Positions 4,345-21,550 of a stretch of DNA of 64,000 nucleotides are shown in pieces (position 1 is the stretch's first letter; every line of letters begins with the position of its first letter). Below the pieces are notes generated by a model. It saw only the letters and a program-made list of their open reading frames with translations. It was not told the origin of the DNA and searched no databases. The DNA is from Candidatus Binatia bacterium (GTDB lineage: Bacteria; Desulfobacterota; Binatia; UBA9968; JAJDTQ01): the NCBI GenBank assembly GCA_963666515.2, contig OY762897.2, positions 3,456,001-3,520,000 of the forward strand, in the 5' to 3' direction. A program made the translations under genes and the position numbers.

Positions 4345-4358
4345 CACTCGTCCTCGGG

Positions 4359-4954: not shown

Positions 4955-5005
4955 GTCCTCATCATCACACCTGCGGGAGATTCGGGCAAGGCGCCGGCCG
5001 CCGTG

Positions 5006-5050: not shown

Positions 5051-5186
5051 CAATGCAGGCTTGGAGTTCCGCCACCACAATCGCCGGCTCGCCCGACCTG
5101 ACCAACTCAAACTTGAAGCCTTCGACGATTCGGTAAATGGGGGTGGTGCGGCTGCGAGCGCGGGGACCGGACAACGATGGTGATCC

Positions 5187-7379
5187 ATGAGCATTGAGCG
5201 GCATTTCGATGTTCCTCTGATCGCGGAGATGGCGCTCAGGGAGAAGCAGATCCAGCAGAACTATCGCCCTATCATCGGAGTGCACAAGTGGTTCGCCCGC
5301 CGTCCGGGAACCTTGTTTCGCGGCCTGATCCTCTCGGAGTTCGCCGAGGATCGTCTGGAGGACACCTTCTTCCGGTCGAATGACCTGTCGGACTTCCGCA
5401 TCGCAGACCCGTTTATGGGCGGCGGGACGCCTCTGATCGAGGCGAATCGACTCGGCTGCGCAGTACAGGGTTTCGATATCAACCCGATGTCGGCATGGAT
5501 CGTCCGCGAAGAAATCGAGCATCTGGACGTCGGGGCCTATGTGCAAGCCGCGCGCGTTCTCATCGACGCGCTGCGTGCCGAAGTCGGCCAACACTACCGC
5601 ACATCGTGCCCCCTCTACGGCGAGGCTGACGTACCCGTGAAATCCTTCCTTTGGGTCAAGGTGCTGGATTGCGAAGCCTGTGGAAAGCGTTTGGACCTTT
5701 TTCCAGGCTACCTTCTCGCCGAGAACCGGCGCCATCCGAAAAACGTGCTGGTGTGTCCGGCCTGTGGCGATCTCAACGAGGTCGATGACCGCACGAGGCC
5801 CGGAGATTGCACGACATGTAAAACCGCCCTGATCCAAACCGGGCCTGCCCGCCGGGGGCGTTGCGCCTGTCCGAGTTGCGGGCACTCCAACGTCTATCCG
5901 GGACAAGCGCGGCACCCCCTCGATCACCGTCTTTTCGCCATCGAGTACTACAACCCCAAGCGTAAGGCGGGTCACAAGGGCCGTTTCTTCAAGAAACCTG
6001 ACGCCGAGGACTTGGCGCGCATGGCGGAAGCCGGGGAGCGGTGGAGACAGACGGCGCCCCGCTTTGTGCCGGACCAGGAGATTCTGCCTGGAGACGAGAC
6101 CGACAGGCTGCATCGTTGGGGGTATGCCCGCTACAAGGACATGTTCAATCCACGTCAGCTCCTCGGGCTGGAGCTGAGCTGCCGGCTGATCTCCGAAACC
6201 GGGAATCGCCGCATTCGCCATGCCTTGGCGACCAACCTTTCCGACCTGCTGCGATACCAGAACATGCTGTGCCGGTACGATGCCATGGCCCTGAAATCAC
6301 TGGATATTTTCTCGGTGCACGGGTTTCCGGTGGGTCTGGTGCAGTGCGAGTCCAATCTCCTGGGCATCGCCAACGGAGGCGGCTCGAATGTCGGGTCCGG
6401 CGGCTGGTCCAACATCGTGGACAAGTACGTGAAGGCGAAGCGGTTTTGTGACGCTCCCTTCGAGGTTCGACGCCGCGGCTCACGCAAGGTTACGGTCGCT
6501 ATCGATGGCGAGTGGATCGGCGAAACGCTTAACGGCAGCCGCAGGGACGTTGCCATTCGTTGCGCGGACGCTGCGGATGTCGAGTTGGCGCCGCGCAGCC
6601 TCGACGCCGTGTTCACCGATCCGCCCTATTTCGGCAACGTCCAGTACGGCGAACTGATGGATTTCTGCTATGTCTGGCTGCGTCGCCTGGTCGGCAACAA
6701 GGCCGAGGGATTCGACCGTCCGTCCACTCGTTCGCCGGACGAGTTGACAGGAAACGTTACCGAGGAGCGCGGCCTGGAGCATTTCACGGACGGGTTGTCC
6801 GCGGTCTATTCGCGCATGGCCGCCGGCCTCAAGTCGGGTGCGCCCCTGGTTTTCACCTACCATCACAACAAGCTGGAAGCCTACTACGCAGTCGGCGTGG
6901 CAATCCTCGACGCCGGCCTTGTCTGTTCCGCATCGCTGCCTTGCCCGGCGGAAATGGGCGGCTCGATCCACATCCACGGTAAAGCATCGTCCATCATCGA
7001 CACGGTCTTCGTATGTCGGATGTCGGGTGCGACTCCGCGGCGCTGGCTGTTCGAGACACCCGAGCAACTCGCTGACGTCGTAAAGGACGATTTGGAGCGG
7101 TTGGAAAGCGCCGGCAGAACACCCACCCATGGCGACCGGCGATGCATCGTCTTTGGCCACCTTACCCGAATGGCGGTCTGGAAGCTCCGCAAGCGATGGG
7201 ACCGTCGACTTCCCGCCAAGCAGAAGCTGGCGGCGTTCGCTGACGCAGTCTCCGCTTATGGCACGGCGGAGCAGCTTGTAGAGCGGGTAGCGACCGGCCG
7301 ACCGAAGACGCCGCTACAGGGCTCCTTGTACGTGGCAGACGCATCCGCAGAGGAGGAATTCAGTGCCGTTCCCTTTTGA
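5187..7379 (+). CDS. Adenine-specific DNA methyltransferase with Zn ribbons (DUF1156/COG1743-like)
   Basis: HKWFARRP, DPFMGGG (motif I), four CxxC pairs, TDPPY (motif IV). Confidence 0.85.
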   Translation: MSIERHFDVPLIAEMALREKQIQQNYRPIIGVHKWFARRPGTLFRGLILSEFAEDRLEDTFFRSNDLSDFRIADPFMGGGTPLIEANRLGCAVQGFDINPMSAWIVREEIEHLDVGAYVQAARVLIDALRAEVGQHYRTSCPLYGEADVPVKSFLWVKVLDCEACGKRLDLFPGYLLAENRRHPKNVLVCPACGDLNEVDDRTRPGDCTTCKTALIQTGPARRGRCACPSCGHSNVYPGQARHPLDHRLFAIEYYNPKRKAGHKGRFFKKPDAEDLARMAEAGERWRQTAPRFVPDQEILPGDETDRLHRWGYARYKDMFNPRQLLGLELSCRLISETGNRRIRHALATNLSDLLRYQNMLCRYDAMALKSLDIFSVHGFPVGLVQCESNLLGIANGGGSNVGSGGWSNIVDKYVKAKRFCDAPFEVRRRGSRKVTVAIDGEWIGETLNGSRRDVAIRCADAADVELAPRSLDAVFTDPPYFGNVQYGELMDFCYVWLRRLVGNKAEGFDRPSTRSPDELTGNVTEERGLEHFTDGLSAVYSRMAAGLKSGAPLVFTYHHNKLEAYYAVGVAILDAGLVCSASLPCPAEMGGSIHIHGKASSIIDTVFVCRMSGATPRRWLFETPEQLADVVKDDLERLESAGRTPTHGDRRCIVFGHLTRMAVWKLRKRWDRRLPAKQKLAAFADAVSAYGTAEQLVERVATGRPKTPLQGSLYVADASAEEEFSAVPF

Positions 7380-8394
7380 AGTCGACTTCGATGAGGTGCA
7401 ATCCAACCTCGACGGGTACGTCGATGCCGTTTTCGGGTGCTTGGAATCCGAGTTTCTGGTCATGCCCAAGGGAGAGGGTTTCGTCGAGTTCGCAACCTTC
7501 GAAGCCGGGTATGAAGCGCTGAAACGCGGCACCGGCGGTTTCCGGGAGGTCACGGCGGAGAAAGTGACGCCAGTCGTTTCCGAAATCCCGATTTCCTTGG
7601 TCGTCCTTCGTTGCATGCTGGGTTTTACGCCTCCGGAGTGGGCCTACTACGCAAGCCGGCACACCGGCCTGACAGTCACCCAGAGTGCGGCACGAACCAT
7701 CGACCGCAAGATTCGCATGCAACCCGATGCGAAGTTGCCGAAAAAAGGAACCGTGACGGAGCGGCGCATTCAAGCGCTGATTGCCGCAGCTTGCCATATC
7801 CTCCAGACGGGCGCTCCCGAAAACTCTCCGGACGAACTGCACAGGTTCGACAAGGCCGATACGAGGGCCGGGCTCACCAGCCTCCGATTGTTGGCGGAAC
7901 TGGGCGTTCCCTACTCCATCCTGCTTTACGAGCGTCTGCTCGGCCGGCCGTTTGCGGGACATCGGGACTCCATCAGCGAACTGGTCGGCAACGTCGTCGA
8001 GAACGCCATTGAGGACGTTCTGTCGCGCGCCGGTATAAGCGCTCGCAAGACCGGACGGGCAGAGAGTCTTCCAGGCTTCGACCAAGCCCCCGATTTCGTC
8101 GTCCCAAATGAGTTCAACCCGCAAGTCGTCATTGAGGCCAAGCTCACCGAAGACGACGGTACTGCCCGCGACAAGGTGACACGCGTCCAACATCTCGGCG
8201 CACTCAGCATGGAGGGTCAGCCGCCAGATCAGCCCAAGTTCGAAGTGGTGGCCTGCATCGCGGGACGCGGGTTCGGCGTTCGTCGTGAAGACATGAAGAA
8301 GCTGCTTCTCTCAACCAGGGGCAAGGTCTTCACTTTGCGGAACATGCACCAATTGGTCGACAACACGCGCCTTGCGGAGTTCCGCTCGCGATAG
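7363..8394 (+). CDS. Putative cognate restriction endonuclease (PD-(D/E)XK, possible N-terminal HTH)
   Basis: APDFVVP...VIEAKLTEDDGTARDK nuclease motif; overlaps the MTase 3' end by 17 bp. Confidence 0.7.
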   Translation: MPFPFEVDFDEVQSNLDGYVDAVFGCLESEFLVMPKGEGFVEFATFEAGYEALKRGTGGFREVTAEKVTPVVSEIPISLVVLRCMLGFTPPEWAYYASRHTGLTVTQSAARTIDRKIRMQPDAKLPKKGTVTERRIQALIAAACHILQTGAPENSPDELHRFDKADTRAGLTSLRLLAELGVPYSILLYERLLGRPFAGHRDSISELVGNVVENAIEDVLSRAGISARKTGRAESLPGFDQAPDFVVPNEFNPQVVIEAKLTEDDGTARDKVTRVQHLGALSMEGQPPDQPKFEVVACIAGRGFGVRREDMKKLLLSTRGKVFTLRNMHQLVDNTRLAEFRSR

Positions 8395-8415
8395 CGGCGT
8401 CCTTCAAAGCCCTCT

Positions 8416-8460
8416 CCGACCGGCGTATGGCAGACGCCGCCGCTTTCGTGATAGCCTGAT
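8416..8460 (+). repeat. 45-bp direct repeat, right copy, directly upstream of hpnC
   Basis: Matches 5006-5050 with one mismatch; contains extended -10-like TGaTAGCCT. Confidence 0.95.
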
Positions 8461-8501
8461 TTCAGGGTGCCACGAGCGGCGCCTTTACCCGTGACCACGC
8501 C

Positions 8502-9434
8502 ATGGCCGAGTCAGTTGCCATAGAGACGCCGTCCGGCAAGCAGGCGGCGGACGAGAATTTTCCCGTCGGGTCCTGGCTGCTGCCGGCGCGCCTGCGGCCG
8601 CACGTGGCGACCTTCTATGCCTACGCGCGGGCCATCGACGACATCGCCGACAACCCGGGCCTCGCGCACGACGACAAGATCGCCCGCCTGGACGGTTTCG
8701 CCAAGGCCGTCAGCGGCGACGGCGACGCCGACCCGGCCTTCCGCAAGGCCCACGAGATCCGCCGCAGCCTGGTGGAGACCGGGGTGACGCACCGGCACTG
8801 CGTGGACCTCGTCCGGGCGTTCAAGCAGGACGCCGTGAAGCTGCGCTACGACGACTGGGACGACCTGATGGGCTACTGTGACCTGTCCGCGGCCCCGGTG
8901 GGCCGCTACCTGGTGGACCTCCACGGCGAGTCGTCCGCGGCCTACCCGGCGTCCGACGCCCTTTGCAACGCGCTGCAGGTGCTCAACCATCTCCAGGACT
9001 GCGGCGACGACTACAGGTCGCTGAACCGGGTCTACCTGCCCCGGGACTGGATGGCCGCCGCGGGCGCAAGCGTCGAGGCCCTCGGCGAAACCCGTTCCTC
9101 CACCGCGCTGCGGCAGGTGCTGGACCGGTGCCTCGACCGGACCGGCGCCCTGCTGGAGCTGGCGGACACGTTGCCGGGACAGCTTCGCAACTCCCGTTTC
9201 GCCATGGAAGCGGCGGCCATCGTCGCCATCGCCCGGAAGCTCGGCGGGGAGTTGCGCCGGCGCGACCCCCTGGCGGAACGGGTGGTGCTGGCGAAGCCGC
9301 AGTTTGCCGCCTGCTGCGTGCGCGGCGCCGGCCGGGTGCTGCTCCGAAGGGCCTTGCGCCGGGACCGCCGGGCGGAACCGCCGCCCTCGCGCGCGGACCG
9401 GCGCGCCGCCGGACGTCACCCGACGCCCAAATGA
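8502..9434 (+). CDS. hpnC: Hydroxysqualene synthase HpnC
   Basis: ENFPVGS, DDIAD, SAAPVGR, LQVLNHLQD and RVYLP motifs; first gene of hpnCDE. Confidence 0.92.
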   Translation: MAESVAIETPSGKQAADENFPVGSWLLPARLRPHVATFYAYARAIDDIADNPGLAHDDKIARLDGFAKAVSGDGDADPAFRKAHEIRRSLVETGVTHRHCVDLVRAFKQDAVKLRYDDWDDLMGYCDLSAAPVGRYLVDLHGESSAAYPASDALCNALQVLNHLQDCGDDYRSLNRVYLPRDWMAAAGASVEALGETRSSTALRQVLDRCLDRTGALLELADTLPGQLRNSRFAMEAAAIVAIARKLGGELRRRDPLAERVVLAKPQFAACCVRGAGRVLLRRALRRDRRAEPPPSRADRRAAGRHPTPK

Positions 9435-9453
9435 CGATCCCGATGGGACGACC

Positions 9454-10329
9454 ATGATGGCGGCGCCGCACCCAGACTCCTCGACTCTCGATACCCTGGA
9501 GCCGTGGACCCACGTCCATCGCGTGGTGGCGCGGTCGGGCACGTCGTTCCTCTGGGGCATGAGGGTGCTGCCGGCGGAACGGCGGCGCGCCATGTACGCC
9601 ATCTATGCGTTCTGCCGCGAGGTGGACGACGTCGCCGACGAGCCCGGGGAGACCGCGGCAAAGAAACGGGGGCTGGCGGCGTGGCGGGAAGAGATCGCGC
9701 GGCTCTACGCGGGCGAGCCGGAGTGGCTGACCACGCGGGCGCTTTTGCAGCCGGTGCGCCGCTTCGACCTGCCGCGGGAGGAATTCCTCGCGGTCATCGA
9801 CGGGGTGGAGATCGACGCCGCGCCCACGGTCAGGATGCCGACCCTGGACGACCTGCTCGACTATTGCCGCAAGGTGGCGGGCGCGGTGGGCATGCTGTCC
9901 ATCCACGCCTTCGGCGTGCCCCGGGACCCCGGCTACCGGATCGCCGAGGCCCTCGGCAACGCCGTGCAGCTCACCAACATCCTGCGCGACGTGAAGGAAG
10001 ACGCGGCCATCGAGCGCCTCTACGTCCCCCTGGAGATGATGCGGCGGCACGGCGTGGCGGAGGGTCCCCCGAGCGCGGTCTTCAGCCAGCCGGGGCTTGC
10101 CGCGGCGTGCGCCGAGCTGGCCGATCTCGCGCGGGACCACTACGCCCGGACCGACCGGCTGCTGGTGCAGCTCGGATGGCGCCAGACGCGTCCCATCGTG
10201 CTGATGATGGCGGTCTACCGGGAGACGCTCCGGCGCCTGGAGGAACGGGGCTGGACGCGCCTCGACCGTCCGGTGCGGCTGACACGGGCGGGCAAACTGT
10301 GGGTCGCCCTGCGCTACGGGCTTCTCTGA
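9454..10329 (+). CDS. hpnD: Presqualene diphosphate synthase HpnD
   Basis: SGTSF, YAFCREVDDVAD, QLTNILRDVKED, RLYVP. Confidence 0.92.
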   Translation: MMAAPHPDSSTLDTLEPWTHVHRVVARSGTSFLWGMRVLPAERRRAMYAIYAFCREVDDVADEPGETAAKKRGLAAWREEIARLYAGEPEWLTTRALLQPVRRFDLPREEFLAVIDGVEIDAAPTVRMPTLDDLLDYCRKVAGAVGMLSIHAFGVPRDPGYRIAEALGNAVQLTNILRDVKEDAAIERLYVPLEMMRRHGVAEGPPSAVFSQPGLAAACAELADLARDHYARTDRLLVQLGWRQTRPIVLMMAVYRETLRRLEERGWTRLDRPVRLTRAGKLWVALRYGLL

Positions 10330-10342
10330 CGGCTTTCTCTCC

Positions 10343-11593
10343 GTGCCCCGGACTCACGTCATCGGCGCCGGCGTGGCCGGCCTCTCCACCGCGGTCGCGC
10401 TGGCGCGGGCGGGGCACTCCGTCACCCTCCACGAGGCCAGCGGCCAGGCCGGCGGACGCTGCCGGTCGTACTTCGACGCCAAGCTTGACTGCGCCATCGA
10501 CAACGGCAACCACCTGCTGCTCACCGGCAACGAGTCCACCATGCGCTACCTGGCGGACACCGGCGCCGCCAGCGAGCTGGTGGGACCGGCTTCGGCCTGC
10601 TTCCCGTTCCTCGATCTGCGCACCGGCCGGCGGTGGCGGCTCCGGCCCAACGCCGGCCGGCTGCCGTGGTGGATCCTCGACCCGCGCCGTCGCGTGCCCG
10701 GCACCCGGGTACGGGACTACCTGTCGGGACTCCGTTTCGCCGTGGCCGGCGCGGACCGCACCGTGACCGATTGCGTGGGCGACCGCGGCGAGCTGTTCGA
10801 GAAGTTTTGGGAGCCGCTGGCGGTAGCGGCCCTCAACAGCCCGGTACGGACCGGCGCGGCGCGGCTCCTGTGGCCGGTGCTGCGCGAGACCTTCGGGCGG
10901 GGCGAGGCCGCCTGCCGGCCCCGCATCGCCCGGACGGGCCTCTCGGGAACGTTCGTGGAGCCGGCGTTGGCGCTCCTGCGGCGTTGCGGCTCCGAAATCC
11001 GGTTCGGCGCCCGGTTGCGCCGCATCGCCCATGAGGGCGGCGCGGCCCGCGGTCTCGATTTCGGCGCCGGAACGGTGGCGTTGGAGGACCGCGACAGCGT
11101 GGTGCTGGCGCTGCCGCCGCCGGCCGCGGCGGACCTGGTGCCGGATCTGACCGTGCCGGACGAAAGCCACGCCATCGTCAACGCCCACTTCCGCTTGACC
11201 GAGCCTGCCGGCCTGCCGGAGGAGCTGCCGTTTCTCGGGCTGATCGGCGGCGCCGCCCAGTGGCTGTTCGCGCGCGGCGACGTGGCCTCCATCACCATCA
11301 GCGCGGCCGACGACGTGGTGGACGAGGAGGCCGACGTGATCGCCCGGCGAACCTGGCGCGACGTCGCTGCCGCCCTCGCCCGCGACCCGGACCCGTTGCC
11401 GCCCTACCGCGTCGTCAAGGAAAAACGCGCGACGTTCGCGCAGACCCCCGCGCAGGTGAAGCTCCGCCCCGGCACCCGCACCCGTTTCTCCAACCTGCAC
11501 TTGGCCGGGGACTGGATCGATACGGGGCTGCCCGCCACCATCGAGAGCGCCGTCCGGTCGGGCCACATGGCCGCCCGCGCGATCACCGGATGA
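10343..11593 (+). CDS. hpnE: Hydroxysqualene dehydroxylase HpnE (FAD-dependent)
   Basis: GAGVAG FAD motif, GGRCRS, DNGNHLL, EKRATF, AGDW...[12 protein letters not shown]. Confidence 0.92.
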
Positions 11594-11723
11594 CGCCCTA
11601 CCCGTGTTCCGAGCGGAGGGAGGCCGGTTCACCTCGAAGGGCGCCATCATTGACCCTCGTGTGCCCGTGCTGCATAGTGAAACGTATCGAAGAGCCGGTA
11701 CGGCGGGATCGGAGGGCTTCCCA

Positions 11724-12683
11724 GTGGCAAAGCAACCCCTGCGGGTCATCCTGGCGCAACCGAGAGGTTTCTGCGCCGGCGTGGTCAGGGCGGTGGACAT
11801 CGTCGAGCGCGCGCTCGACATCTACGGCGCACCGGTCTACGTGCGCCACGAGATCGTCCACAACAAGCACGTGGTGGACCGCTTGCGCGAGAAGGGCGCG
11901 CGTTTCGTCGAGAAGGTCTCCGACATCCCCAAGGGCGCGGTGACGGTGTTCAGCGCCCACGGCGTATCGCGGAAGGTGGAGGACGCCGCGGACACCCGCA
12001 GCCTCCAGGTCATCGACGCCACCTGCCCGCTGGTGAGCAAGGTGCACGTCGAGGCGCAACGCTACGCGCGGCAGGACTACGAGGTGGTCCTCATCGGACA
12101 CGCGGGACATCCGGAGGTGGAGGGCACCATGGGGCAGGTGCCGGGCACGGTGCACCTGGTGTCCGATCTGGCGGACGTGGCGGCGCTGAAGCCCGCGGAC
12201 CCGGCGAAGCTGGCCTACGTGACGCAGACGACCCTCAGCGTCGACGACACGCGCGAGATCATCGCCGCGCTGAAGGCGCGTTTCCCCGAGATCCGGGGCC
12301 CCGACGTGAAGGACATCTGCTACGCGACGCAGAACCGGCAGACCGCGGTGCGGCTTCTGGCGGCCGAGTCCGACGTGATCCTGGTCATCGGCGCCGACTA
12401 CAGCTCCAACTCCAACCGGCTGCGGGAGATCGGCGACGAGGTGGGGACCGCCAGCCACCTCATACCGGATGCCGGCAGCCTGGACCCTGCCTGGCTGGAA
12501 GGGACGCATACGGTGGGCATCACCGCCGGCGCGTCCGCGCCCGAAGATCTGGTGCAAGGGCTCGTGGACCGGCTCTGCGACATGTTCGACGTCACCCTGA
12601 CCGACCTCGACGGCATCGAGGAGAACGTCACCTTCAAGCTCCCGCGGGAACTCGTCGGCGTCGACCCCGCTATTCCCCGTTAG
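11724..12683 (+). CDS. ispH: 4-hydroxy-3-methylbut-2-enyl diphosphate reductase
   Basis: [38 protein letters not shown]; GTG start with GGAGG RBS. Confidence 0.95.
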
Positions 12684-13933
12684 AAGTTGTAGCTCAGGTG
12701 CAGCTCGACGAAGCTGTCGCGCCGAGTCTGGTAGGTGGCGACGTCCGCCCTGTCCACCGCCAGGAAGAATACGCTCTCGACGTGCAGCGACCAATGGTCG
12801 GAGAGGCGGCGGTTGAACTCGACGAACAGCGAACGCGTGGAATGGTCGGCGTCGGCCAGAAAGCTGGCGACGAGATCGGTGCTCTGGACGTCGTTGAACG
12901 CCAGGCGCGCGCCCAGGAAGATGTCGTTCTGGAAGACGTTGGTGGCGTTCTCCTTCCGCCCGTCGTAGTTCCACTCGGCGAGAAGGCTGAGGTCAAGGTC
13001 CGACTCGAAGATGGAGTTGAACGTGTACTCTCCGCCGGCGACGAAGGCCGCGTAGTCTTCTTCCCGCCCGACCTGGTTCGAGGCGCCGCTTCGGTGCAGG
13101 GCCTCGAGCTTCAACAGCCAGGACCCGATGGTGAGCTGGGCGTCCAGACTGAACTGGCGGGTCTGCTCGTAGTAGGGCGCCAGCAGCAGCTCGCCCTTCC
13201 GGTTCAGCCGAGGCGGCAGGCAGGCAAGGCAGGGCTCCCGGCTGGTGCCGTCGAAGACGCTCACGCCCAAGTCGAGGGGACCGAAGCTGTGGCTGTAACG
13301 AGCGGCCAGGTCCACGTGCCACTCTTCGGCCGAACTCTCGTAGAAGACGCGCTTTTCGTCCACCACGAATTGGCTGCGCAGGCGGCCTTCCCGGCCCGGG
13401 TAGGTGCGTTCCCGGTGATACGGAAGCGCGAAAAGTTCTGCCACCCCCCAGTCGCCGGACCAAGTCAGATGGGCCATGAGCTGGCCGAGCTTGGCTTCTT
13501 CGTTGGGATTCTCGATAAGGTCGGTCTGGTTGACGATATCCACCAGGTGGCGTGATTCCGCAACCCCCCAGAACACCCGGTCCGCACCGAGGCGCAACTC
13601 CCACTCGCCGTCGCCGATCTCGCCGAACACCAGGAAATAGGCTTCGCGCACGTCGAAATGGGTGCGGCGGGAGTCGCCGGCGTCGTAGCGGAAGAAGGGC
13701 GCGAGGGTGACGCTTCTGCCCTCGTCGTCCTCGGCGTAGAGCCTGGGCTCCACCACGACGCCGGAGGCGTGGGACTTCTGGCCGGGGTGGTCTTCGTCCT
13801 GGTAGTGCCACCGGCTCTCCAGGCCCACCCGTCCCGACACCTCGATCGCCGAGGCTCCTCCGGCGGCAAGGACCCAAGCCAGGACCAGGATCGTCCCGGC
13901 CGCGGTGATGAGGAGGAAGGGGCGCGTCATCAC
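12680..13933 (-). CDS. Putative outer-membrane beta-barrel protein of an MMPL/LolA-like transport module
   Basis: Signal peptide, amphipathic beta strands, FWGVAES motif, C-terminal LSYNF; coupled to the LolA-like gene. Confidence 0.75.
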
Positions 13934-14742
13934 CGTGCCCGTTTCAGGCCGGTCCGGGTGAAGTCCCTCTCATTGAGCTTGGTCCGGTACTTGAAATCCG
14001 TCCACGTCATCACCGTGCTCTTGCCCGTCAGGTGATTGACCATGGTCATCTCGTGCGCCTGCCAGTAGCGGTCCAGGTACTTCCGGTACTTGGCCATCGT
14101 CAGGGTCTTCAGGTGGGCATTCTTCCGGTCGAAGTAGTGGACCTTGCGGACCCGCAGCTCGTCCTTGTCCTGCCACACCACCTGGCGGCGATAACCCGAC
14201 CTCTTGGCGACCGGGAAGCGTTCCACGACCGTGCAGGTGGCGTCGCCGCAAGGCTCGTCGCGCAGGTACTTGTAGGTGAACCTTTCCACTTCCGAGCTGC
14301 CCATGTCCTCGTACGAGAACTCGCTGCCCATGAAGGAGCCGGAGCGATTCGACGAGCTGATGCGCTTGACCCGCTTGAGCGCCGGCAAGTAGAGCCACTG
14401 GTCGTCCGATTTCTCCTTGTGGGCGTGGACGAGGAAGGCCGTCCCCTTCACGTCCCGCGGCTCGTCGAACACGAACAGGCTCTTGTCGCCGTCTCCGGGC
14501 GCCTCCAGGACCTTGATGCGGGCTTGGCGCTTGCTCTCCTGCCCATGCTTGTTGCGCAGCACCATGGTCTGCTGCGCGGTGAAGTTGCCGAAACCCTTGC
14601 CCCTCTCGCGGGTTTCACGCGCGATCTTCAACCCCTTTTCCTCCGCGGTTTCAGCGTGCGCCGCCGGCGGCCCGCCCGCGGAAGCGAGCAGCGCCAGGCA
14701 GGAGAAGAGCAGCACCCATCGAACAGGCAGAACGTGCATCAC
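13930..14742 (-). CDS. Outer-membrane lipoprotein-sorting (LolA-like/DUF1329) periplasmic protein
   Basis: Signal peptide; family signature DDQWLYLPALKRVKRI...SFMGSEFSYED. Confidence 0.88.
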   Translation of the reverse strand: MMHVLPVRWVLLFSCLALLASAGGPPAAHAETAEEKGLKIARETRERGKGFGNFTAQQTMVLRNKHGQESKRQARIKVLEAPGDGDKSLFVFDEPRDVKGTAFLVHAHKEKSDDQWLYLPALKRVKRISSSNRSGSFMGSEFSYEDMGSSEVERFTYKYLRDEPCGDATCTVVERFPVAKRSGYRRQVVWQDKDELRVRKVHYFDRKNAHLKTLTMAKYRKYLDRYWQAHEMTMVNHLTGKSTVMTWTDFKYRTKLNERDFTRTGLKRAR

Positions 14743-17030
14743 GATTCCCTCCGGTCAAGGGCCATCAACAGAGTCGGTAAAAGCAGAAAATCACCCGCGA
14801 GCGCAAACAGAATGGTGCTGGTCACCATGAGCCCGAGGGCCCAGCTCACCTCGAACCCCGATGACGCGAAGACCAGAAACCCCGCGGACAACACCGCGGT
14901 GGTGACCCAAAGCGCGTGGCCGACGGTGCGGAAGACGGAGCGCACCGCCTCGGCGGCCGGGAGGCCCTCCCGGCGGGCCCTCAGGTACTTGCTGAGGAAG
15001 TGGATCGTGTCGTCCACCACGATGCCGAAGGAGATGGCGACCATCACCGAGGCCGCGAGCCCCACCTGGCCCACGAGCCAGCCCCACAGGCCGAAGGTCA
15101 TGATCGCGGGAAGGAAGTTGGGCACGAGGCTGATGAGGCCCAGGCGCACGCTCCGGAAGACCCCGATGAGAATGAACGAGATCAGCGCCATGGCGACGAT
15201 GGTGCCGCGCAGCATGCTCTCGATGTTGCGCTTGGACAGGTGGGCGAAGACCACGGTCAGGCCCGTCCCCTCGGTGGCGAGCTGCGGCGCGTTGGCCCGG
15301 AGCCAGGCCTGCCCGCGCGCGTCGATCTCCCGGTGTTCGCGAGCCGACGAGCTGGTGACCACGACGGTCATGCGCGTGGCGGACTTGCCCACGTCGATGC
15401 GGTCGTTCAGGTCGCTTCCGAACGGCAGCGAAAGCTCGTACAGCAGCAGGTACTGGGCGGCGAGCTCGGGATCGTCCGGCAGCCGGTAGAACGCCGGGTC
15501 GTCGTCGTGCATGTTCTTGTTCAGGCGCTTCATGATGTCCGGGAACGCCTGGACGTGGCTCACCTCGGGCTGGCTCCGGAACCATTCGGCGAAGGCGTCC
15601 ACCGCACGCAGGTAGGCCGGATCGGTGATGCCGCCTTCCCGTTCCGCCTTGAGCGAGTATTCCAGCGTGTTCAGGCTGGTGAGATTCTCGACCACGAAGT
15701 CCGTGTGGCGCCGGAACTCGTAGCGGTCGTCGAAGTACTTGGTCCAGTTGTCGGTCAGCTCGATGCGGGGGACGCCGGTGGCCAGGGCCAGCGTCACGAC
15801 GGCGACGGACCCCAGCAGCACCCTGCGGCGCGCCACCACGAAGCCGCCCAGGCGGTCGAAGAACGGGTGGCCTTCAGCGCGGGCGCGAGGCGCGCGCAAG
15901 GGCAGCAGCGAGAGCACCGCCGGCAGCAGCGTCAGGGTATAGAGGAAGGCGCAGCCCACACCGAAGGCCACGAAATTGCCCAGCACGTGGAACGGCGGCG
16001 AGTCCGAGGAATTGAGGCTGAGAAAACCGATGGCGGTGGTGGCCGCGGTCAGGAACACCGGCCAGGCGTTGGCGCGAAGGGATTCGGCGACGGCCTCGTT
16101 CCGGTCGGCGCCGCGGCTCATGGCCAGCAAGGCGGTGGCGACCACATGGACCGAGTTCGCCACGGATATGGCCATGACGATGATCGGCACGCCGGAATTC
16201 GCCGGGTTGAACACCGCTCCCATCCAGCCCGCGAGCCCCATGGTGCTGTTGACCGAGAACACCATGACGAGAACGATGGACACGGTGCCCCAGACCGAGC
16301 GCAGGAGAAACGCCGAGGCGGCCACGATGACCAGGAACACCACCGGGACCAGGGTGGCGAGATCGTCTTCCGTGGCCTCGGCGAAGGCGCGGTTCATGAC
16401 CACCAGGCCGGTCAGGTAGTAGTCGATGCCCGGATGCTTTGCCCGGGCCTTGTCCAGCAGGGTGCGGAGATAACCGGTAATCTCGATCACCGCGGGGTCG
16501 GAGTCTTCCGGAAGCACGAAGGTGATGACCAGTCCAGCCACCCGGCCGTCGCGGGAGACCAGGCGGCCGGCGGTCTCTGGAGAGCCCAGCGCGATGTTCC
16601 TGACCCGCGCCACTCCGGCGTCGTCCAGCGCCTGCGCGTCCTCCACCAGCGGCTCGACGATCAGGTCGTCGCCGTCCGCCTCGCTGTGGGTATAGTTGGT
16701 GAGGGAGTCGACCCGGGTGGAATGCGGCGCTTCCCACGCCGCCGCGGTGAGTTCCTCGACGGCGCCCAGGTTCTCGCGCGTGAACACCGTGCCCTGCCGC
16801 GGCGCGACCGCGATCAGCGCCGAGTTGGATGCGGAGTAGGTGGCTTCCAGGGCGTCGAACGCCGCGAGCTGCGGATTGCCTTCGCCGAAGAGAACCCGGT
16901 GCTCGTTCTTGACCACGACGTGGGGCGCACCCGCGGCCAAGGCCAGCATGACCAGGGTCGCGAGCCCGGCCACCAGCCACCGGTGACGCAGGACGGCGGC
17001 GATGTACGTGTCCAGTGAGAGAGAATTCAT
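14739..17030 (-). CDS. MMPL/RND-family lipid transporter
   Basis: Two repeats of TM + periplasmic domain + 5 TM; TTAIGFLSL and GIVVDDTIHF motifs. Confidence 0.9.
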   Translation of the reverse strand: MNSLSLDTYIAAVLRHRWLVAGLATLVMLALAAGAPHVVVKNEHRVLFGEGNPQLAAFDALEATYSASNSALIAVAPRQGTVFTRENLGAVEELTAAAWEAPHSTRVDSLTNYTHSEADGDDLIVEPLVEDAQALDDAGVARVRNIALGSPETAGRLVSRDGRVAGLVITFVLPEDSDPAVIEITGYLRTLLDKARAKHPGIDYYLTGLVVMNRAFAEATEDDLATLVPVVFLVIVAASAFLLRSVWGTVSIVLVMVFSVNSTMGLAGWMGAVFNPANSGVPIIVMAISVANSVHVVATALLAMSRGADRNEAVAESLRANAWPVFLTAATTAIGFLSLNSSDSPPFHVLGNFVAFGVGCAFLYTLTLLPAVLSLLPLRAPRARAEGHPFFDRLGGFVVARRRVLLGSVAVVTLALATGVPRIELTDNWTKYFDDRYEFRRHTDFVVENLTSLNTLEYSLKAEREGGITDPAYLRAVDAFAEWFRSQPEVSHVQAFPDIMKRLNKNMHDDDPAFYRLPDDPELAAQYLLLYELSLPFGSDLNDRIDVGKSATRMTVVVTSSSAREHREIDARGQAWLRANAPQLATEGTGLTVVFAHLSKRNIESMLRGTIVAMALISFILIGVFRSVRLGLISLVPNFLPAIMTFGLWGWLVGQVGLAASVMVAISFGIVVDDTIHFLSKYLRARREGLPAAEAVRSVFRTVGHALWVTTAVLSAGFLVFASSGFEVSWALGLMVTSTILFALAGDFLLLPTLLMALDRRES

Positions 17031-17075
17031 GGGTTTGGGAACGCTACCGGACGGGCGCTGCGGCTACAAGCACCG

Positions 17076-18230
17076 TCACCATTCGCTTTGCTTCGATGAG
17101 TGGACGTGGTCGGGCATCTTGTAGCTCAGGCCGCCCTCGTCGTACACCGAGATCTTGATCATCTGAGTGAAGTTTCCCGATCGTATGAGCTGGTCGCTCG
17201 TCAGCATCCGCTGAAGGCGTTGTTTCATCCGGAACAGGAACAGCGTCCCGATGGTGTTGGTCTTAGGGTACCGGAAGTGGTTGGCCAGTTTGTTGCCTAT
17301 GAGGGCGCGCGAAAGGCGCCGGGCCAGGGCCGTCACTCTCTTCTGCTCGTCCGGATCCTGGATATCCGCAACCTTCGGAATCGAGTCGATCAGCATGTTC
17401 GCCACGGCTGCGGCGTCCGCGTCCGGTTCGGGCTCGATCAGTCTGCCGATCCGGTACATTCTTTCCGCCGCGGGGCCGTCGGCATAGAGGATGGCGTCAG
17501 GTATTCCCATGAGATGGCCGGCATAACGCCAGACGGCCAGGACGCTGTCATACTCTTTCTTGCTGAACTTCGCGCCCAACAACGTCGCGTATTCGAGCAG
17601 AAGCCTGGAGAAAACGGAGATGGCGAAACCCAGGTGCGCGGCGCTTACCGGCGTGCCCCAGGCCTCATGGTCCCAGTCGTCGGATTTCGCCAGCAGGTTC
17701 CTGATCCGGGCGTGGACGAAGCGCACCCGGGTGGACAGCTTCCAGCCGTCGCCGTCGCGGTTGAGGCCGCCCGGGAAGAAGATGTCCAGGAGCTGGCGGT
17801 TGTTCTGCTGGAGGCGTCGTTCGGTCGCGCCCACCCGGCCGGTGATGTAGAAGGACTTCGAGATGAGCGTGGCAAAGCCTTCCACCAGCACGCCGGTGAC
17901 GAATGCCGCCAGCATGAGGTCCACGTTGGCGTGGAAGGCGCGTATCCCCGGACGAAAGGCGTCGTGGTCGAGCCAGGGGGGATCCTCGAGGTTCTCGAAG
18001 AAGTCGCGCAGGACTTGGGGCGCGTCCCGCAGAACTTCGTCGTGGTGCTCGATGCCGGCGCCCACGAAACGATGAAGGTGTGCCGGATTCAGCGAGGAGA
18101 GCTCCTCCATCACCGGGTCGAGCGCGGGGTCGCCGATGAGGGTGTGGCGGAGATAGTTGTCAGCCAGCGCTTGGTCGTACTGGCGGGCCTTGGCGTAGCC
18201 CGCGGTGTAGGCGGTCGGCGTCCGGTCCAT
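17076..18230 (-). CDS. MpaB/Lcp-type (DUF2236, rubber-oxygenase-like) heme oxygenase
   Basis: GDPALD, PPWLD, RVRFVHARIR (heme-ligand His motif), WGTPVS, VWRYAGHLMGI. Confidence 0.85.
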   Translation of the reverse strand: MDRTPTAYTAGYAKARQYDQALADNYLRHTLIGDPALDPVMEELSSLNPAHLHRFVGAGIEHHDEVLRDAPQVLRDFFENLEDPPWLDHDAFRPGIRAFHANVDLMLAAFVTGVLVEGFATLISKSFYITGRVGATERRLQQNNRQLLDIFFPGGLNRDGDGWKLSTRVRFVHARIRNLLAKSDDWDHEAWGTPVSAAHLGFAISVFSRLLLEYATLLGAKFSKKEYDSVLAVWRYAGHLMGIPDAILYADGPAAERMYRIGRLIEPEPDADAAAVANMLIDSIPKVADIQDPDEQKRVTALARRLSRALIGNKLANHFRYPKTNTIGTLFLFRMKQRLQRMLTSDQLIRSGNFTQMIKISVYDEGGLSYKMPDHVHSSKQSEW

Positions 18231-18247
18231 GGTTGCGCCCGTAAACG

Positions 18248-20143
18248 TCAGGCTACGTCCGCGTGGCCGGCGACGTGAGCGACCAGCTCTTTGGCTCGTT
18301 GATGGATCCCGTCCGCGGTCAAACCGTACTTCTCCCTGAGCAGATCCTGGGGACCCTGTTCGATGTACCAGTCGGGCAAGCCCAGACACCTGGTCGGCAG
18401 GTTGATGATACCCTTTTCGGACAATAGTTCAAGAACCGCAGATCCGAACCCGCCCATGGCGGTCGATTCCTCCACCGTGAGAAGGCACTTGACCTCCTTC
18501 GCCACCGCTGCGATCAGGTCGCCGTCAAGGGGCTTGACGAACCGCGCGTTGATCACCGCGGCGGAAATCCCCTCCTGTGCGAGCCGTTCCGCGGCGGCCG
18601 CGGCCTGGTGCACCGTCACGCCGATGGCCACCAGCGCGATGTCCGTGCCTTCCCGCAGCAGCTCGCCTTTGCCCAGGGGCAGCGCCTGCGGCATCGGGTC
18701 CATGTCCACCCCGAGGCTGGAGCCACGGGGATAGCGGACCGCCGCCGGCCGGTCGTAGCTGATGCACGACTTGACCATGTGCTGCAGCTCGTTCTCGTCC
18801 TTGGGGGCCATGACCACCATGTTGGGCACGTGCCGGAGGTAGGCCAGATCGAACGCCCCGTGGTGGGTGGTGCCGTCCTCGGCCACGAGCCCGCCGCGGT
18901 CGATGCAGAGCGTCACCGGAAGGTTCTGGGTGGCGACGTCGTGGACCACCTGGTCATAGGCCCGCTGCAGGAAGGTCGAGTAGATGGGGATCACCGGCCT
19001 CATGCCCTGTGCCGCCAGGCCCGCGGCGAAGGTCACCGCGTGCTGCTCGGCGATGCCGACGTCGTAGAGCCGGTCGGGAAAGATCTTCTCGAACGCGCCC
19101 AGTCCCGTCCCCTCGGACATGGCGGCGGTGATGGCGACGATGCGCGGGTCTTCCTTGGCAAGCTGGATGAGCGTGTTGACGGCGATGGCGCTGTAGGATG
19201 GCGTGGTGGACTTCTTTTTCGGCCTCCCGGTTTCGCGGTCGAACGGCGAGCTGGCATGGAACCACACGGGGTTGTCCATGGCCGGCCCGTAGCCCAGCCC
19301 CTTCTTGGTAACCACGTGCAGCAGCGTCGGACCTTCGAGCTTCAGGACGTTCTCCAGGGTCGGCAGCAGGTGCTCGAACTTGTGCCCGTCGATGGGTCCG
19401 AAGTACCGGAACCCCAGCTCCTCGAACAACAGCCCGGGCAGCAGCAGCCCCTTGACCAGCTCCTGGGCCCGGCCGGCCAGCCGCTGCACCTGGTCGCCGA
19501 TGTGCGGCATCCGGCCCAGCACCCGTTTCGTCTCTTCCGTGATGCGGTCGAAGAACTCGCCGGTGATGGTGCGGTTCAGATACGCCGAGATCGACCCCAC
19601 GTTCTTGGAGATGGACATCTGGTTGTCGTTCAGGATCACCAGCAGGTCTCTTTTCGATCCCCCCGCCTGCTGAAGCCCTTCCATGGTCAGGCCGGAGGTG
19701 AGGGCGCCGTCGCCGACCACGCAGACGACTTGGTGTTTCTGCTGCCGCTGCTCGCGGGCCTCCACGAATCCCACCGCAGCCGAGACGCCGGTGCCGGCGT
19801 GGCCGGCGTTGAAGGTGTCGTACTCGCTCTCCTCGCGCTTGCAGAAGCCGCTCAGCCCCTCGAACTGGCGGATGGTGTGAAACTGTTCCCGGCGCCCGGT
19901 CAAGAGCTTGTGGGCGTATGCCTGGTTGCTGGTGTCCCAGACGATGAGGTCCCTGGGCGTGTCCAGGAGGTAGTGGAGGGCGACGGTAAGCTCGACGACG
20001 CCCAGGTTGGAGGCGAGGTGCCCGCCGACATTGGATATGACCGAGATGATCTCTTCGCGAATCTCCTCGCAGAGCTGCGGAAACTGCTCCGGAGAGAGCT
20101 TCTTGAGATCGGCCGGCCGGCTGATCATGCTCAGAATCGACAT
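18248..20143 (-). CDS. dxs: 1-deoxy-D-xylulose-5-phosphate synthase
   Basis: GGHLASNLGVVELT, GDGA...LNDN ThDP motif, DVGIAEQHAV, DGTTHHG, RYPRG. Confidence 0.95.
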   Translation of the reverse strand: MSILSMISRPADLKKLSPEQFPQLCEEIREEIISVISNVGGHLASNLGVVELTVALHYLLDTPRDLIVWDTSNQAYAHKLLTGRREQFHTIRQFEGLSGFCKREESEYDTFNAGHAGTGVSAAVGFVEAREQRQQKHQVVCVVGDGALTSGLTMEGLQQAGGSKRDLLVILNDNQMSISKNVGSISAYLNRTITGEFFDRITEETKRVLGRMPHIGDQVQRLAGRAQELVKGLLLPGLLFEELGFRYFGPIDGHKFEHLLPTLENVLKLEGPTLLHVVTKKGLGYGPAMDNPVWFHASSPFDRETGRPKKKSTTPSYSAIAVNTLIQLAKEDPRIVAITAAMSEGTGLGAFEKIFPDRLYDVGIAEQHAVTFAAGLAAQGMRPVIPIYSTFLQRAYDQVVHDVATQNLPVTLCIDRGGLVAEDGTTHHGAFDLAYLRHVPNMVVMAPKDENELQHMVKSCISYDRPAAVRYPRGSSLGVDMDPMPQALPLGKGELLREGTDIALVAIGVTVHQAAAAAERLAQEGISAAVINARFVKPLDGDLIAAVAKEVKCLLTVEESTAMGGFGSAVLELLSEKGIINLPTRCLGLPDWYIEQGPQDLLREKYGLTADGIHQRAKELVAHVAGHADVA

Positions 20144-20177
20144 GATTCATCCTTCCATCGAGACGGACATGGGTATC

Positions 20178-20205
20178 TCATGATCACAAGATCATGATCA
20201 CAAGA
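20178..20205. repeat. Perfect 14-bp tandem repeat (tcatgatcacaaga x2), candidate operator
   Basis: Seen directly between the predicted dxs promoter and the dxs start. Confidence 0.8.
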
Positions 20206-20207
20206 AA

Positions 20208-20236
20208 ATTCTCACAGAGTTGGCATGGACTGTCAA
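20208..20236 (-). promoter_or_regulatory. Sigma70-type promoter for the dxs-oxygenase-transporter operon
   Basis: Minus strand TTGACA-17 nt-GAGAAT with extended TG. Confidence 0.6.
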
Positions 20237-20272
20237 CAAACCGGACGCGCAAGCCGCCCGCGCCTCACGGTC

Positions 20273-20302
20273 TTGACCCGCGGTGCCGCGGAACGCTATA
20301 CA
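20273..20302 (+). promoter_or_regulatory. Putative sigma70 promoter for cupin-eutA
   Basis: TTGACC-18 nt-TATACA. Confidence 0.35.
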
Positions 20303-20392
20303 GATGTTTCCTGTTTTTCGGGCTGGGCGACTGCCGGCCCGTTTTTGTTCCCCAAACACGACTTTCACCAATCCAATTCAAGGAGCGATACC

Positions 20393-21523
20393 ATGGGAGA
20401 AGACATCAGCGATGCGGTAGCAGAGAAGACCAAGTTCACCTACGACCACTGGATGGAGGGCCTCGGACTTCCGATCCACACGGGGTATTTCATCGGCGAC
20501 CTTCGCACCTGCGACCTGGAGTGGTGGGAAGACCGCAAGTGCAAGGCGGCCTTCATGCAGCTCATGGGTCAGGAAGGCGTCACCGGAGCCTGGATCCAGG
20601 AGATCGCCCCGGGAGAGTCGAGTCCGCCGGTACGGTTCGCCCTCGATGAGGTGTGCTACGTGGTCGAGGGCCGGGGCACCACCACGGTGTGGCGCGACGA
20701 CAACGGCACCAGGAAGACCTTCGAGTGGCAGAACAACAGCATGTTCATCGTCCCCCGCAACTACCACTACACCATCAACAACATGCAGGGCGACAAGGTG
20801 GTGCGGCTGCTGCACTACAACTACCTGCCGCTGGCCATGTCCTCCGTGGGAGACCCGGAGTTCTTCTTCGACAATCCCTTTTCCGGCCAGGACGTCATCG
20901 CCTCCGAGGAAGGCGAGTTCTACTCCGAGGCCAAGATGGTCACGGATTCGGGCAAGTGGAACGTGTGGAACCGGCGCGTCTACTGGTACGGCAACTTCTT
21001 CCCCGACATGAGGGCGTGGGACAAGCTCGACGAGAACAAGAAGCGCGGCGCCGGCGGCCACAGCGTGTTCATCGAGTTCCCCAACTCGGAGCTTTCCTGC
21101 CACATGTCGGTGTTCGCGGCGCGCACCTACAAGAAGGCCCACCGGCACGGCCCGGGCCGGGTCATCGTCATCCCCGCGGGCGAGGGCTATTCGATCCTGT
21201 GGGAAGAGGGCAAGGAGAAGATCGTGGTCCCGTGGCACGAGGCCAGCGTCTTCGTGCCGCCCAACAAGTGGTTCCACCAGCACTTCAACGCCGGCGCCAC
21301 GCCCGCGCGCTACTTGGCCTTCCATCCGCCCATGCAGTTCCACGGCTACGCGGAGAAGGTGGAGGACCGGGCCAAGGACCAGATCGAGTACCCGGACGAG
21401 GATCCCTTCATCCGGCAGAAGTTCGAGGAAGAGCTGGCCAAGCGCAACACCACGAGCCTCATGCACGAGGAAGCCTACACCAACCCCGACTACGAGTGGT
21501 CCAAGGGGATGGGAAAACAGTAG
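20393..21523 (+). CDS. Bicupin protein (gentisate 1,2-dioxygenase-like fold)
   Basis: KAHRHGPG and WFHQHFN metal motifs in the C-terminal cupin; AAGGAG RBS before ATG 20393. Confidence 0.8.
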   Translation: MGEDISDAVAEKTKFTYDHWMEGLGLPIHTGYFIGDLRTCDLEWWEDRKCKAAFMQLMGQEGVTGAWIQEIAPGESSPPVRFALDEVCYVVEGRGTTTVWRDDNGTRKTFEWQNNSMFIVPRNYHYTINNMQGDKVVRLLHYNYLPLAMSSVGDPEFFFDNPFSGQDVIASEEGEFYSEAKMVTDSGKWNVWNRRVYWYGNFFPDMRAWDKLDENKKRGAGGHSVFIEFPNSELSCHMSVFAARTYKKAHRHGPGRVIVIPAGEGYSILWEEGKEKIVVPWHEASVFVPPNKWFHQHFNAGATPARYLAFHPPMQFHGYAEKVEDRAKDQIEYPDEDPFIRQKFEEELAKRNTTSLMHEEAYTNPDYEWSKGMGKQ

Positions 21524-21550
21524 GTCCGAGGGAATCAGAGACGGCAAGCC

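Follow-up and report, generated by a model that had tools for sequence, protein, structure and literature searches.

We analyzed a 64,000-nt stretch of the genome of a Candidatus Binatia bacterium (contig OY762897.2, positions 3,456,001 to 3,520,000; hereafter the window), in which the region 8502-20236 carries a candidate cassette for making, oxidizing and transporting squalene. Nine intact genes lie there in two convergent runs: hpnC-hpnD-hpnE-ispH on the plus strand face dxs, an oxygenase gene and the genes of an MMPL transporter, a LolA-like protein and an outer-membrane beta-barrel on the minus strand (Table 1). A first-pass annotation of this DNA had placed the nine genes in the same way, and the assignments of HpnC, HpnD, HpnE, IspH and Dxs are now borne out by scores above the NCBIfam cut-offs. 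The overlap of the convergent stop codons at 12680-12683, which it had also described, is real as well, ispH and the barrel gene sharing the tetranucleotide TTAG.

Table 1. Features of the candidate cassette (positions within the window)
Feature	Position	Strand	Support
hpnC, hydroxysqualene synthase	8502..9434	+	TIGR03464 271.3 bits vs cut-off 250.45; dN/dS 0.23-0.28
hpnD, presqualene diphosphate synthase	9457..10329	+	TIGR03465 315.4 bits vs cut-off 278.6; dN/dS 0.16-0.27
hpnE, hydroxysqualene dehydroxylase	10343..11593	+	TIGR03467 397.9 bits vs cut-off 283.05; dN/dS 0.15-0.24
ispH, last step of the methylerythritol phosphate (MEP) pathway	11724..12683	+	NF002188 477 bits vs cut-off 420
outer-membrane beta-barrel, 417 aa	12680..13933	-	no Pfam match; porin-like model; signal peptide and C-terminal Phe
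periplasmic LolA-like carrier	13930..14742	-	PF17131 211.7 bits
MMPL/RND inner-membrane transporter, nearest HAE3 type	14739..17030	-	PF03176, two stretches; dN/dS 0.13-0.19
MpaB/Lcp-fold haem oxygenase, 384 aa	17076..18230	-	PF09995 66.7 vs 23 bits; dN/dS 0.10-0.17
dxs, first MEP step	18248..20143	-	TIGR00204 829.8 bits vs cut-off 466
sigma70-like promoter candidate TTGACA-17-GAGAAT, extended -10	20208..20236	-	65 nt before dxs; consensus match only

For two of the genes the longest open reading frame starts upstream of the likely start codon. The frame of hpnD opens at 9304, its match to TIGR03465 begins at residue 75 of this long version and the likely start is ATG 9454/9457; the frame of ispH opens at 11604, with a likely start at 11724. 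HpnC, HpnD and HpnE convert farnesyl diphosphate (FPP) to squalene, and the three proteins encoded here, which adjoin one another and each exceed a curated cut-off, likely do the same. Compared with seven congeners the pairwise dN/dS is 0.07-0.32 across all nine genes; as judged from these alignments, all nine are genuine, undamaged genes kept by purifying selection. The minus-strand genes are tightly packed (17 nt between dxs and the oxygenase gene, 45 nt between the latter and the MMPL gene, then two 4-nt overlaps), and the promoter candidate before dxs is the best of three sites in 8300-20500, matching at 10 of 12 positions where shuffled sequences yield 0.7 ± 0.9 sites. Because of this spacing and this promoter candidate the run from dxs to the barrel gene is likely a single five-gene transcript. 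A terminator scan returned 10 sites against 6.3 ± 2.6 by chance, none of which we rely on.

Bacterial squalene is known to be cyclized or converted to C30 carotenoids, and squalene routes are not always tied to cyclases according to the available passages of two papers (PMC9907078, PMC7306690). In the window there is neither a cyclase nor a CrtN/CrtI desaturase, as had been noted before, and this absence extends to the whole genome (G000; 4.67 Mb in two contigs, 98.35% complete). The suggested search for cyclases in the rest of the genome gave no match to the squalene-hopene cyclase (SHC) profiles TIGR01507 and PF13243 and no oxidosqualene cyclase; genome-wide there is likewise no squalene epoxidase, no match to HpnH and none above cut-off to HpnA. 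The best CrtI/CrtN match in the genome reaches 66.5 bits with TIGR02734 (cut-off 238.1), and two weak CrtI-like genes near C1:1533393-1535839 (54-67 bits) lie among unrelated oxidoreductases. For this genome we therefore reject a hopanoid pathway (no SHC, HpnH or HpnA above cut-off), a de novo sterol pathway (no epoxidase, no oxidosqualene cyclase) and a C30 carotenoid pathway (no CrtI/CrtN above cut-off). FPP synthase genes are present elsewhere in the genome, and the oxygenase gene is single-copy.

The structure model of the oxygenase (pLDDT, the predicted local distance difference test score, 86.6) matches the rubber oxygenase LcpK30 best (PDB 5O1L/5O1M; Z 30.0, root mean square deviation (rmsd) 3.6, 339 aligned residues), followed by t-anethole oxygenase (PDB 8S1J; Z 19.0, rmsd 3.2, 258 aligned), with the next matches at Z ≤9. 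R164 and the haem ligand H198 of Lcp are retained as R139 and H173. Among 44 sequences at least 45% identical, Q142, H173 and H199 are found in all and E117, R139 and N143 in 43; the proximal His173 is also kept in 29 of 31 sequences at middle distance. Sixty distant sequences mostly have E-T at 142-143 and D at 199. At the position of the Lcp base E148 the sequence alignment gives Ile, and E117, six residues earlier, is the candidate catalytic base. Since the Q142/N143/H199/E117 signature is near-invariant in the close sequences and differs from Lcp and from the distant ones, the enzyme is, by these alignments, a member of a distinct subfamily with its own signature (E117, R139, Q142, N143, H173, H199) and not Lcp proper. 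Alkene cleavage by Lcp, MpaB and Nro1 yields an aldehyde and a ketone, and by analogy we predict haem-b binding and O2-dependent alkene cleavage. Passages on MpaB and MpaB' describe the terminal prenyl bond of a farnesylated phthalide being cut to an aldehyde (10.1101/524025, PMC6900556), with an epoxide route proposed for MpaB'; Nro1 of Gordonia is described as cleaving nitrile rubber (in a passage of PMC12724181, which cites Purwani et al.). The protein starts with MDRTPTAYT (ATG 18230) and has no hydrophobic leader in a simple hydropathy scan; as there is no signal peptide, it would work inside the cell. No fusion of the oxygenase to a synthase or a transporter occurs among proteins of 673-2000 aa, which is weak evidence. 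Of seven long or odd representatives that were scanned one carries cNMP and methyltransferase domains, and the ESM Atlas holds generic MpaB clusters only.

We then asked how often the oxygenase has the same neighbours in other lineages. From 64 oxygenase loci we set aside nine of the Binatia type and a distant one from Actinomadura, which leaves 54 loci in 49 genomes (48-73% identical) of Alpha- and Gammaproteobacteria, Acidobacteriota, Nitrospirales, Latescibacterota, Longimicrobiales/Palauibacter, Rhodothermales, Dehalococcoidia, Multivorans and others. All neighbour counts cover oxygenase-carrying loci only and extend to 10 kb. Squalene-synthesis genes were found in 13 of the 54 loci, from six lineages (in one locus just a 58-aa piece of hpnE), ispH in 10, dxs in one and at least one isoprenoid gene in 18; the complete transporter accompanies the oxygenase in 20 loci and some part of it in 27. 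By chance 0.78 loci each would be expected for squalene-synthesis genes and for ispH under generous assumptions, and random 21-kb windows of G000 contain them in 0.5% and 0.9% of cases, respectively. One acidobacterial locus has hpnCDE, oxygenase, MMPL, LolA-like and barrel genes on a single strand. Elsewhere squalene would mostly come from a single-gene synthase: the squalene synthase profile TIGR01559 is the best match for all ten tested, though each stays below its cut-off. Seemingly the source of squalene, HpnCDE or a single-gene synthase, was swapped while the oxygenase partner was kept. The first-pass annotation had named a lack of linkage to isoprenoid genes in other genomes as what would refute it; instead the linkage recurs in six other lineages with two squalene routes, which supports a functional link of squalene synthesis, oxygenase and transporter.

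The carrier genomes point in the same direction. A gene of the squalene/phytoene synthase family (PF00494) is held by 48 of the 49 carriers and by 8 of 14 controls. No cyclase match was obtained in 27 carriers and weak ones only in four more (the completeness of the 49 genomes is unstated), and none has CrtI/CrtN above cut-off, which in 77 other genomes was reached five times, always in congeners. The oxygenase tree intermixes lineage labels in the way horizontal transfer would. From the taxon names and the class list in the available part of PMC9531527 the host lineages appear to be sponge symbionts; a scan of JGI metagenomes added two short loci only. In 8-12 loci of several phyla a module of STAS, SpoIIE phosphatase, anti-sigma kinase, binding protein and histidine kinase genes lies near the oxygenase (L038, L040, L050, L052, L054-L058, L060, L073, L079); it might control the cassette or be transferred together with it. 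Two loci (L052:13590-14939, Nitrospirales; L111:186-1544, a metagenome contig) have within the module a flavin amine-oxidase-family gene, HpnE-like yet far below the cut-off, as a candidate tailoring enzyme.

Within the genus we compared 27 congeners, 28 genomes together with this one; the loci of G004, G009, G016, G020 and G025 were read from match coordinates only. hpnE exceeds its cut-off in 25 of the 27 congeners but in none of 33 genomes from the order's other genera, and SHC does so in none of the 28; three genomes have sub-cut-off SHC matches near E 1e-80, and the one examined (G021) is an epoxidase-cyclase fusion. Fourteen congeners carry an oxygenase of 73-87% identity and the transporter, together referred to here as the module, between dxs and ispH. 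Four have at the locus an oxygenase paralogue of about 50% identity in reverse orientation, one has a decayed module, one (G012) the LolA-like and barrel genes without oxygenase and MMPL, and seven have no module, five of these with and two without hpnCDE. The nine-gene layout is identical in eight of the nine Binatia-type loci and also in G003, and in G027 hpnCDE lies about 34 kb from the locus. In G028 a fusion of squalene synthase and polyprenyl synthase (661 aa; L099:3070-5055) directly follows the barrel gene on the module strand, and in G023, which has no hpnE, the oxygenase paralogue stands head-to-head with a squalene synthase gene. The oxygenase and the LolA-like gene are both present in 19 congeners, both missing in six and discordant in only two, and this joint presence and loss suggests that the transporter carries the product of the oxygenase.

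In a tree built from seven flanking genes and covering 20 of the 28 genomes (midpoint root, no outgroup), the five module-less genomes with hpnCDE fall into one clade (support 0.91). As this clade also includes one module-bearing genome and the decayed one, loss of the module is favoured there over primary absence. Compared with the order's other genera, identity of dxs and ispH of the genus is only 50-55%; the ispH that adjoins oxygenase and transporter in an alphaproteobacterial locus, by contrast, reaches 83%, and in G028 a dxs remnant precedes the oxygenase. Because of these three observations we think that the cassette probably arrived with its own dxs and ispH, which displaced the native genes and now anchor the locus after the module is lost. 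G011 (L089; one contig, 98% complete) keeps ispH and hpnCDE, and no dxs match was found in it at the locus or genome-wide.

One might regard the neighbourhood as accidental, a mobile oxygenase-transporter block having been inserted between two housekeeping genes. Transposases near the oxygenase in many of the outside loci would agree with this, as would the adjacency of dxs and ispH in congeners without the module. However, the linkage recurs with varied gene orders and non-orthologous squalene synthases in six lineages and again in G023 and G028, and the module is found on both sides of the midpoint root of the genus tree. We consider chance to be largely refuted by these findings and hardly credible.

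The three remaining minus-strand proteins resemble parts of an envelope-spanning lipid transporter. The MMPL protein has 10 hydrophobic segments in a simple scan and finds its best match in TIGR00921 (157.6 bits, cut-off 351.9); with the HpnN profile it reaches 101 bits (cut-off 751.85) and with BstA 26.6 bits (cut-off 1400), so that it does not class with the sterol transporter BstABC. The LolA-like protein matches PDB 3BK5 (E 5e-83) and, partially, DUF1329 (37.5 bits), PF17131 being far better. The barrel protein has a hydrophobic N-terminus and ends in HLSYNF. Its model (pLDDT 86.3) has about 18 long strands and matches OccD3 (Z 23.7, rmsd 2.8, 292 aligned) and, equally well, other Occ porins; no DUF1302 structure is among the matches listed besides these 18-strand porins. 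Several of 120 listed homologues carry PF06980, and the barrel may be distantly DUF1302-like. A complex prediction for the LolA-like protein and the barrel scored 0.85, the best of three controls 0.01, and runs agreed in at least 92% of the contacts with a partner pLDDT of at least 89. Of 157 solved pairs 116 attain the mark we applied, as do 2 of 215 mismatched ones; it is only roughly applicable here as our alignments were self-made, and the pass could be explained by a similar solved complex. The predicted contacts include both termini of the barrel, and the termini of such porins face the periplasm. The LolA-like protein is thus predicted to dock on the barrel.

Further transporter genes of this type were found outside the cassette. 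The genome holds a canonical DUF1302-DUF1329-YCF48-RND set (L109) and, at L106:326-18375, a cluster with a fatty-acid-desaturase/GlnE fusion, YcaO, a C39 ABC exporter, an MMPL, a second LolA-like/barrel pair and a halogenase. The congeners G015 and G016 (L097, L098) have an L106-like cluster with a 37% identical oxygenase paralogue and sterol-methyltransferase-like genes; possibly clusters of this type encode a lipid-peptide hybrid pathway. In Dehalococcoidia (L081:5461-12121; L040, L038, L045, L046) the oxygenase lies behind a different, MmpL3-like MMPL without LolA-like and barrel genes, and at L081 dxs and ispH flank it as in the window.

From the conservation of sequence and gene order the cassette is, in our view, a conserved and horizontally shared unit. 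We propose that it makes squalene, that the oxygenase cleaves a double bond of squalene with O2 and that the product is carried outward, a proposal for which we see the chances as evenly balanced. HpnCDE would convert MEP-derived FPP to squalene in the inner membrane, and the cytoplasmic Lcp-fold haem enzyme would cut one of its C=C bonds. The MMPL pump, the LolA-like carrier and the porin-like barrel would take the polar fragment as far as the outer membrane or release it from the cell, and the cleavage aldehyde would be oxidized or reduced by enzymes encoded elsewhere. In this scheme we infer squalene as the substrate, the processing of the aldehyde elsewhere and the outward direction of transport. 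A terminal cut, as made by fungal MpaB, would give acetone and a C27 aldehyde, an alternative cut methylheptenone and a C22 aldehyde; a cut at C10=C11 would give geranylacetone and the C17 aldehyde 5,9,13-trimethyltetradeca-4,8,12-trienal, as derived from the structure of squalene. We make no choice among the three. A 1993 paper on sponge phospholipids, cited in PMC5706045, reportedly names in its title 5,9,13-trimethyltetradecanoic acid, which has the saturated skeleton of the C17 trienal; this is a lead and not evidence. More tentatively, we put forward a third bacterial fate of squalene, an enzymatic "ozonolysis" carried out by a haem oxygenase subfamily dedicated to it, the seco-squalene aldehydes, acids or alcohols being exported by a dedicated envelope conduit and the system having passed horizontally between seven or more sponge-microbiome lineages.

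Several points weigh against squalene cleavage. LcpK30 requires R164, T168 and H198; T168 is 99.6% conserved in Lcps and a T168A variant keeps 2% activity according to the parts of PMC6311187 at hand. In our oxygenase T168 is replaced by N143 and K167 by Q142, and its chemistry may for this reason differ from that of Lcp. Next, isoprenoid genes are missing within the distance considered from 36 of the 54 outside loci, and transporter genes, at the threshold used, from 27, and the 54 loci are not independent owing to kinship and transfer, so that significance is overstated. Neither was the claim of the first-pass annotation that the cluster boosts isoprenoid flux borne out: dxs is the only copy of the genome and the cluster ispH the main one, the only other LytB-family gene being 24-25% identical and present across the genus. 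We rejected such an extra-copy effect, as both are housekeeping copies and there are no extra MEP genes. The cassette also lacks an aldehyde dehydrogenase gene; one that lies directly downstream of a polyprenyl synthase gene (L116:5441-8531) is a candidate oxidizer of a cleavage aldehyde. Moreover, the five module-less congeners keep hpnCDE without a cyclase or CrtI, and dN/dS of hpnCDE is 0.15-0.21 in these as compared with 0.15-0.22 in module bearers. The relaxed selection that might follow loss of the module is not seen. Because hpnCDE is intact and equally selected in these five genomes, squalene is, on this sequence evidence, useful without the oxygenase.

Further points come from sterol genes. 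At L107:9429-16044 (C1:3077428-3084043) this genome has a 62% identical MMPL paralogue beside a GPP34-P450 fusion, a sterol C24-methyltransferase and a KshA-like Rieske enzyme, and an ERG4/ERG24 reductase stands alone at C1:1215964. The genome hence has sterol-tailoring genes without the epoxidase and cyclase of sterol synthesis. The GPP34-P450 appears to be of the sterol-cluster type, a label taken from its homologue in congener G021, where it lies beside an 1152-aa squalene epoxidase-oxidosqualene cyclase fusion (L104:8261-13818) that faces a DUF1329-YCF48-MMPL-MMPL run. Together with the 62% identical MMPL these genes allow a reading in terms of sterols or of cross-feeding.

The cargo could thus be squalene itself, or an uncleaved oxide or alcohol, which would be delivered to the outer membrane or passed on to the host or to fellow symbionts equipped with an epoxidase-cyclase, so that community members would each contribute steps to a common sterol pathway. 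This would explain why hpnCDE is selected without the oxygenase, why G012 keeps the LolA-like and barrel genes without oxygenase and MMPL, why our genome has tailoring genes (methyltransferase, P450, Rieske enzyme, ERG4/24 reductase) while epoxidase and cyclase are missing, and why a long frame of the epoxidase-cyclase type occurs in just 6 of the 49 carriers. Sponge-symbiont steroid clusters have been described, and squalene synthase and steroid genes are reported as enriched and mobile in sponge microbiomes (available parts of PMC9531527, PMC10070321); the altered distal residues of the oxygenase and the epoxide route proposed for MpaB' would suit such a product as well. On the other hand, all characterized family members in the passages of the cited papers cleave the alkene, and the co-occurrence of oxygenase and LolA-like gene in the congeners points to the product of the oxygenase as cargo. 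We regard uncleaved cargo as unlikely.

Alternatively the oxygenase might cut the side-chain double bond of a sterol or of another prenyl lipid, either self-made or obtained from the host or neighbours, the link to squalene reflecting a shared triterpenoid island. The C24=C25 bond of sterols is the same group as the terminal isopropylidene attacked by MpaB, and the fungal enzyme, in the passages on it, removes this group from a prenyl chain borne on a ring. In 3 of the 54 loci the oxygenase has sterol-tailoring genes as neighbours, the GPP34-P450 fusion was matched in 41 of 79 genomes tested, and the MMPL has weak matches to the sterol-sensing domain. But none of the 54 loci has an epoxidase-cyclase beside the oxygenase, 13 squalene synthases stand against the three sterol genes among the neighbours, and 19 of the 49 carriers have a synthase but neither a cyclase nor the sterol-cluster P450. 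We think a substrate of this kind distinctly unlikely.

Finally, the direction of transport might be inward and external polyisoprenoids be imported and degraded as food, the synthesis genes being mere neighbours. Lcp and Nro1 are catabolic in the passages on them, an MMPL-LolA fusion and a porin are induced on C28 alkane, a long-chain substrate, in Thalassolituus (available part of PMC6304351), and sets of DUF1302 and DUF1329 proteins are placed in catabolic islands in the accessible literature. Export, in line with our proposal, has been described as well: AmeABCD of Castellaniella, a related HAE3 system, exports monoterpenes (part of PMC6394551), and a role in exporting a wall component has been suggested for cofit DUF1302/1329 sets (part of 10.1101/072470). 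Against uptake speak the repeated linkage to synthases, ispH and dxs across phyla, the module in one predicted transcript behind dxs and the finding that no beta-oxidation or acyclic-terpene-utilization genes recur as neighbours among the clusters scanned. We consider uptake very improbable.

Two features of the surroundings touch none of these questions. A pair of double-cupin and EutA-like genes (window 20225-23071) is kept beside dxs genus-wide, the genome holding 13 such cupins and four EutA-like genes. The flanks (window 1-8394 and 26266-32273) encode an XcyI-like nuclease, an N6/N4 methylase, a DUF1156-like protein, an AbiEi antitoxin and a ResIII helicase and are restriction-modification or defence-like.

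Bacterial squalene is taken to indicate hopanoids, sterols or C30 carotenoids, and many of the uncultured carriers show none of these routes; the cassette offers a testable answer as to what squalene is for in such bacteria. It provides a candidate squalene-cleaving enzyme, which if confirmed would be of use in the biocatalytic production of geranylacetone or seco-squalene aldehydes, and a first cargo hypothesis for the common, poorly understood triad of MMPL, PF17131 protein and barrel. It also bears on who makes the isoprenoid lipids and biomarkers of sponges. If squalene is indeed cleaved, these bacteria could be a source of seco-squalene lipids, for example the C17 acid mentioned above, or of compounds that act on sterol synthesis of the host or of neighbours.

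In the literature searched (with few subscription journals and no supplements) we found no description of the combination of oxygenase, transporter and squalene synthesis; the supplementary gene tables of PMC9531527 and PMC10070321 may list these genes unnamed. Hopanoid clusters often include ispH. The cassette further shares with the hopanoid hpn cluster that contains HpnN the hpnCDE genes and an RND lipid transporter, but it differs in that SHC, HpnH and HpnA are missing at the cut-offs used and its MMPL stays far below the HpnN cut-off. With the squalene route to C30 carotenoids it has in common a squalene fate independent of cyclases, HpnCDE and Sqs being interchangeable there according to a passage of PMC9907078; that route, however, requires CrtN/CrtP, for which the genome has nothing near the cut-off. 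The steroid clusters of sponge symbionts resemble it in the range of host classes, in horizontal spread and in the enrichment of squalene synthase, yet in the available passages they are built around epoxidase, cyclase, CYP51 and ERG24, none of which is in the cassette, and these passages contain no MpaB/Lcp enzyme. AmeABCD and the DUF1302-DUF1329-YCF48-RND sets, as far as they are described in the accessible parts, move apolar terpenes with a HAE3-like pump, a periplasmic protein of the LolA superfamily and a barrel, to which the MMPL, LolA-like and barrel proteins of the cassette may correspond; the triad here has three parts without YCF48 (neither room nor a match for a YCF48/COG4447 protein exists in the minus-strand run), PF17131 in place of a full DUF1329 and a smaller barrel.

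Among the enzymes, Lcp rubber oxygenases are secreted by Tat export. LcpK30 has the same fold and the equivalents of R139 and H173, and like it our protein is predicted to be a haem-b alkene oxygenase acting on isoprenoid chains; ours differs by an identity of 16-17%, by N and Q in place of T168 and K167, by the absence of a secretion signal and by a setting of biosynthesis and transport rather than rubber degradation. t-Anethole oxygenase (8S1J) shares the fold and, like Nro1, C=C cleavage as far as the source passages go, but these two are catabolic, shorter and act on non-terpene substrates, with 10-13% identity. MpaB and MpaB' of mycophenolic acid synthesis belong to the same Pfam family and, in the passages on them, cleave an isoprenoid C=C bond to an aldehyde inside the cell and for biosynthesis; there the substrate is a farnesylated phthalide, whereas here squalene synthesis is the partner and no prenyltransferase-aromatic partner recurs. 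To sum up, all parts of the cassette come from known families and follow a logic of making, modifying and exporting, and the cleavage of squalene is a plausible new reaction.

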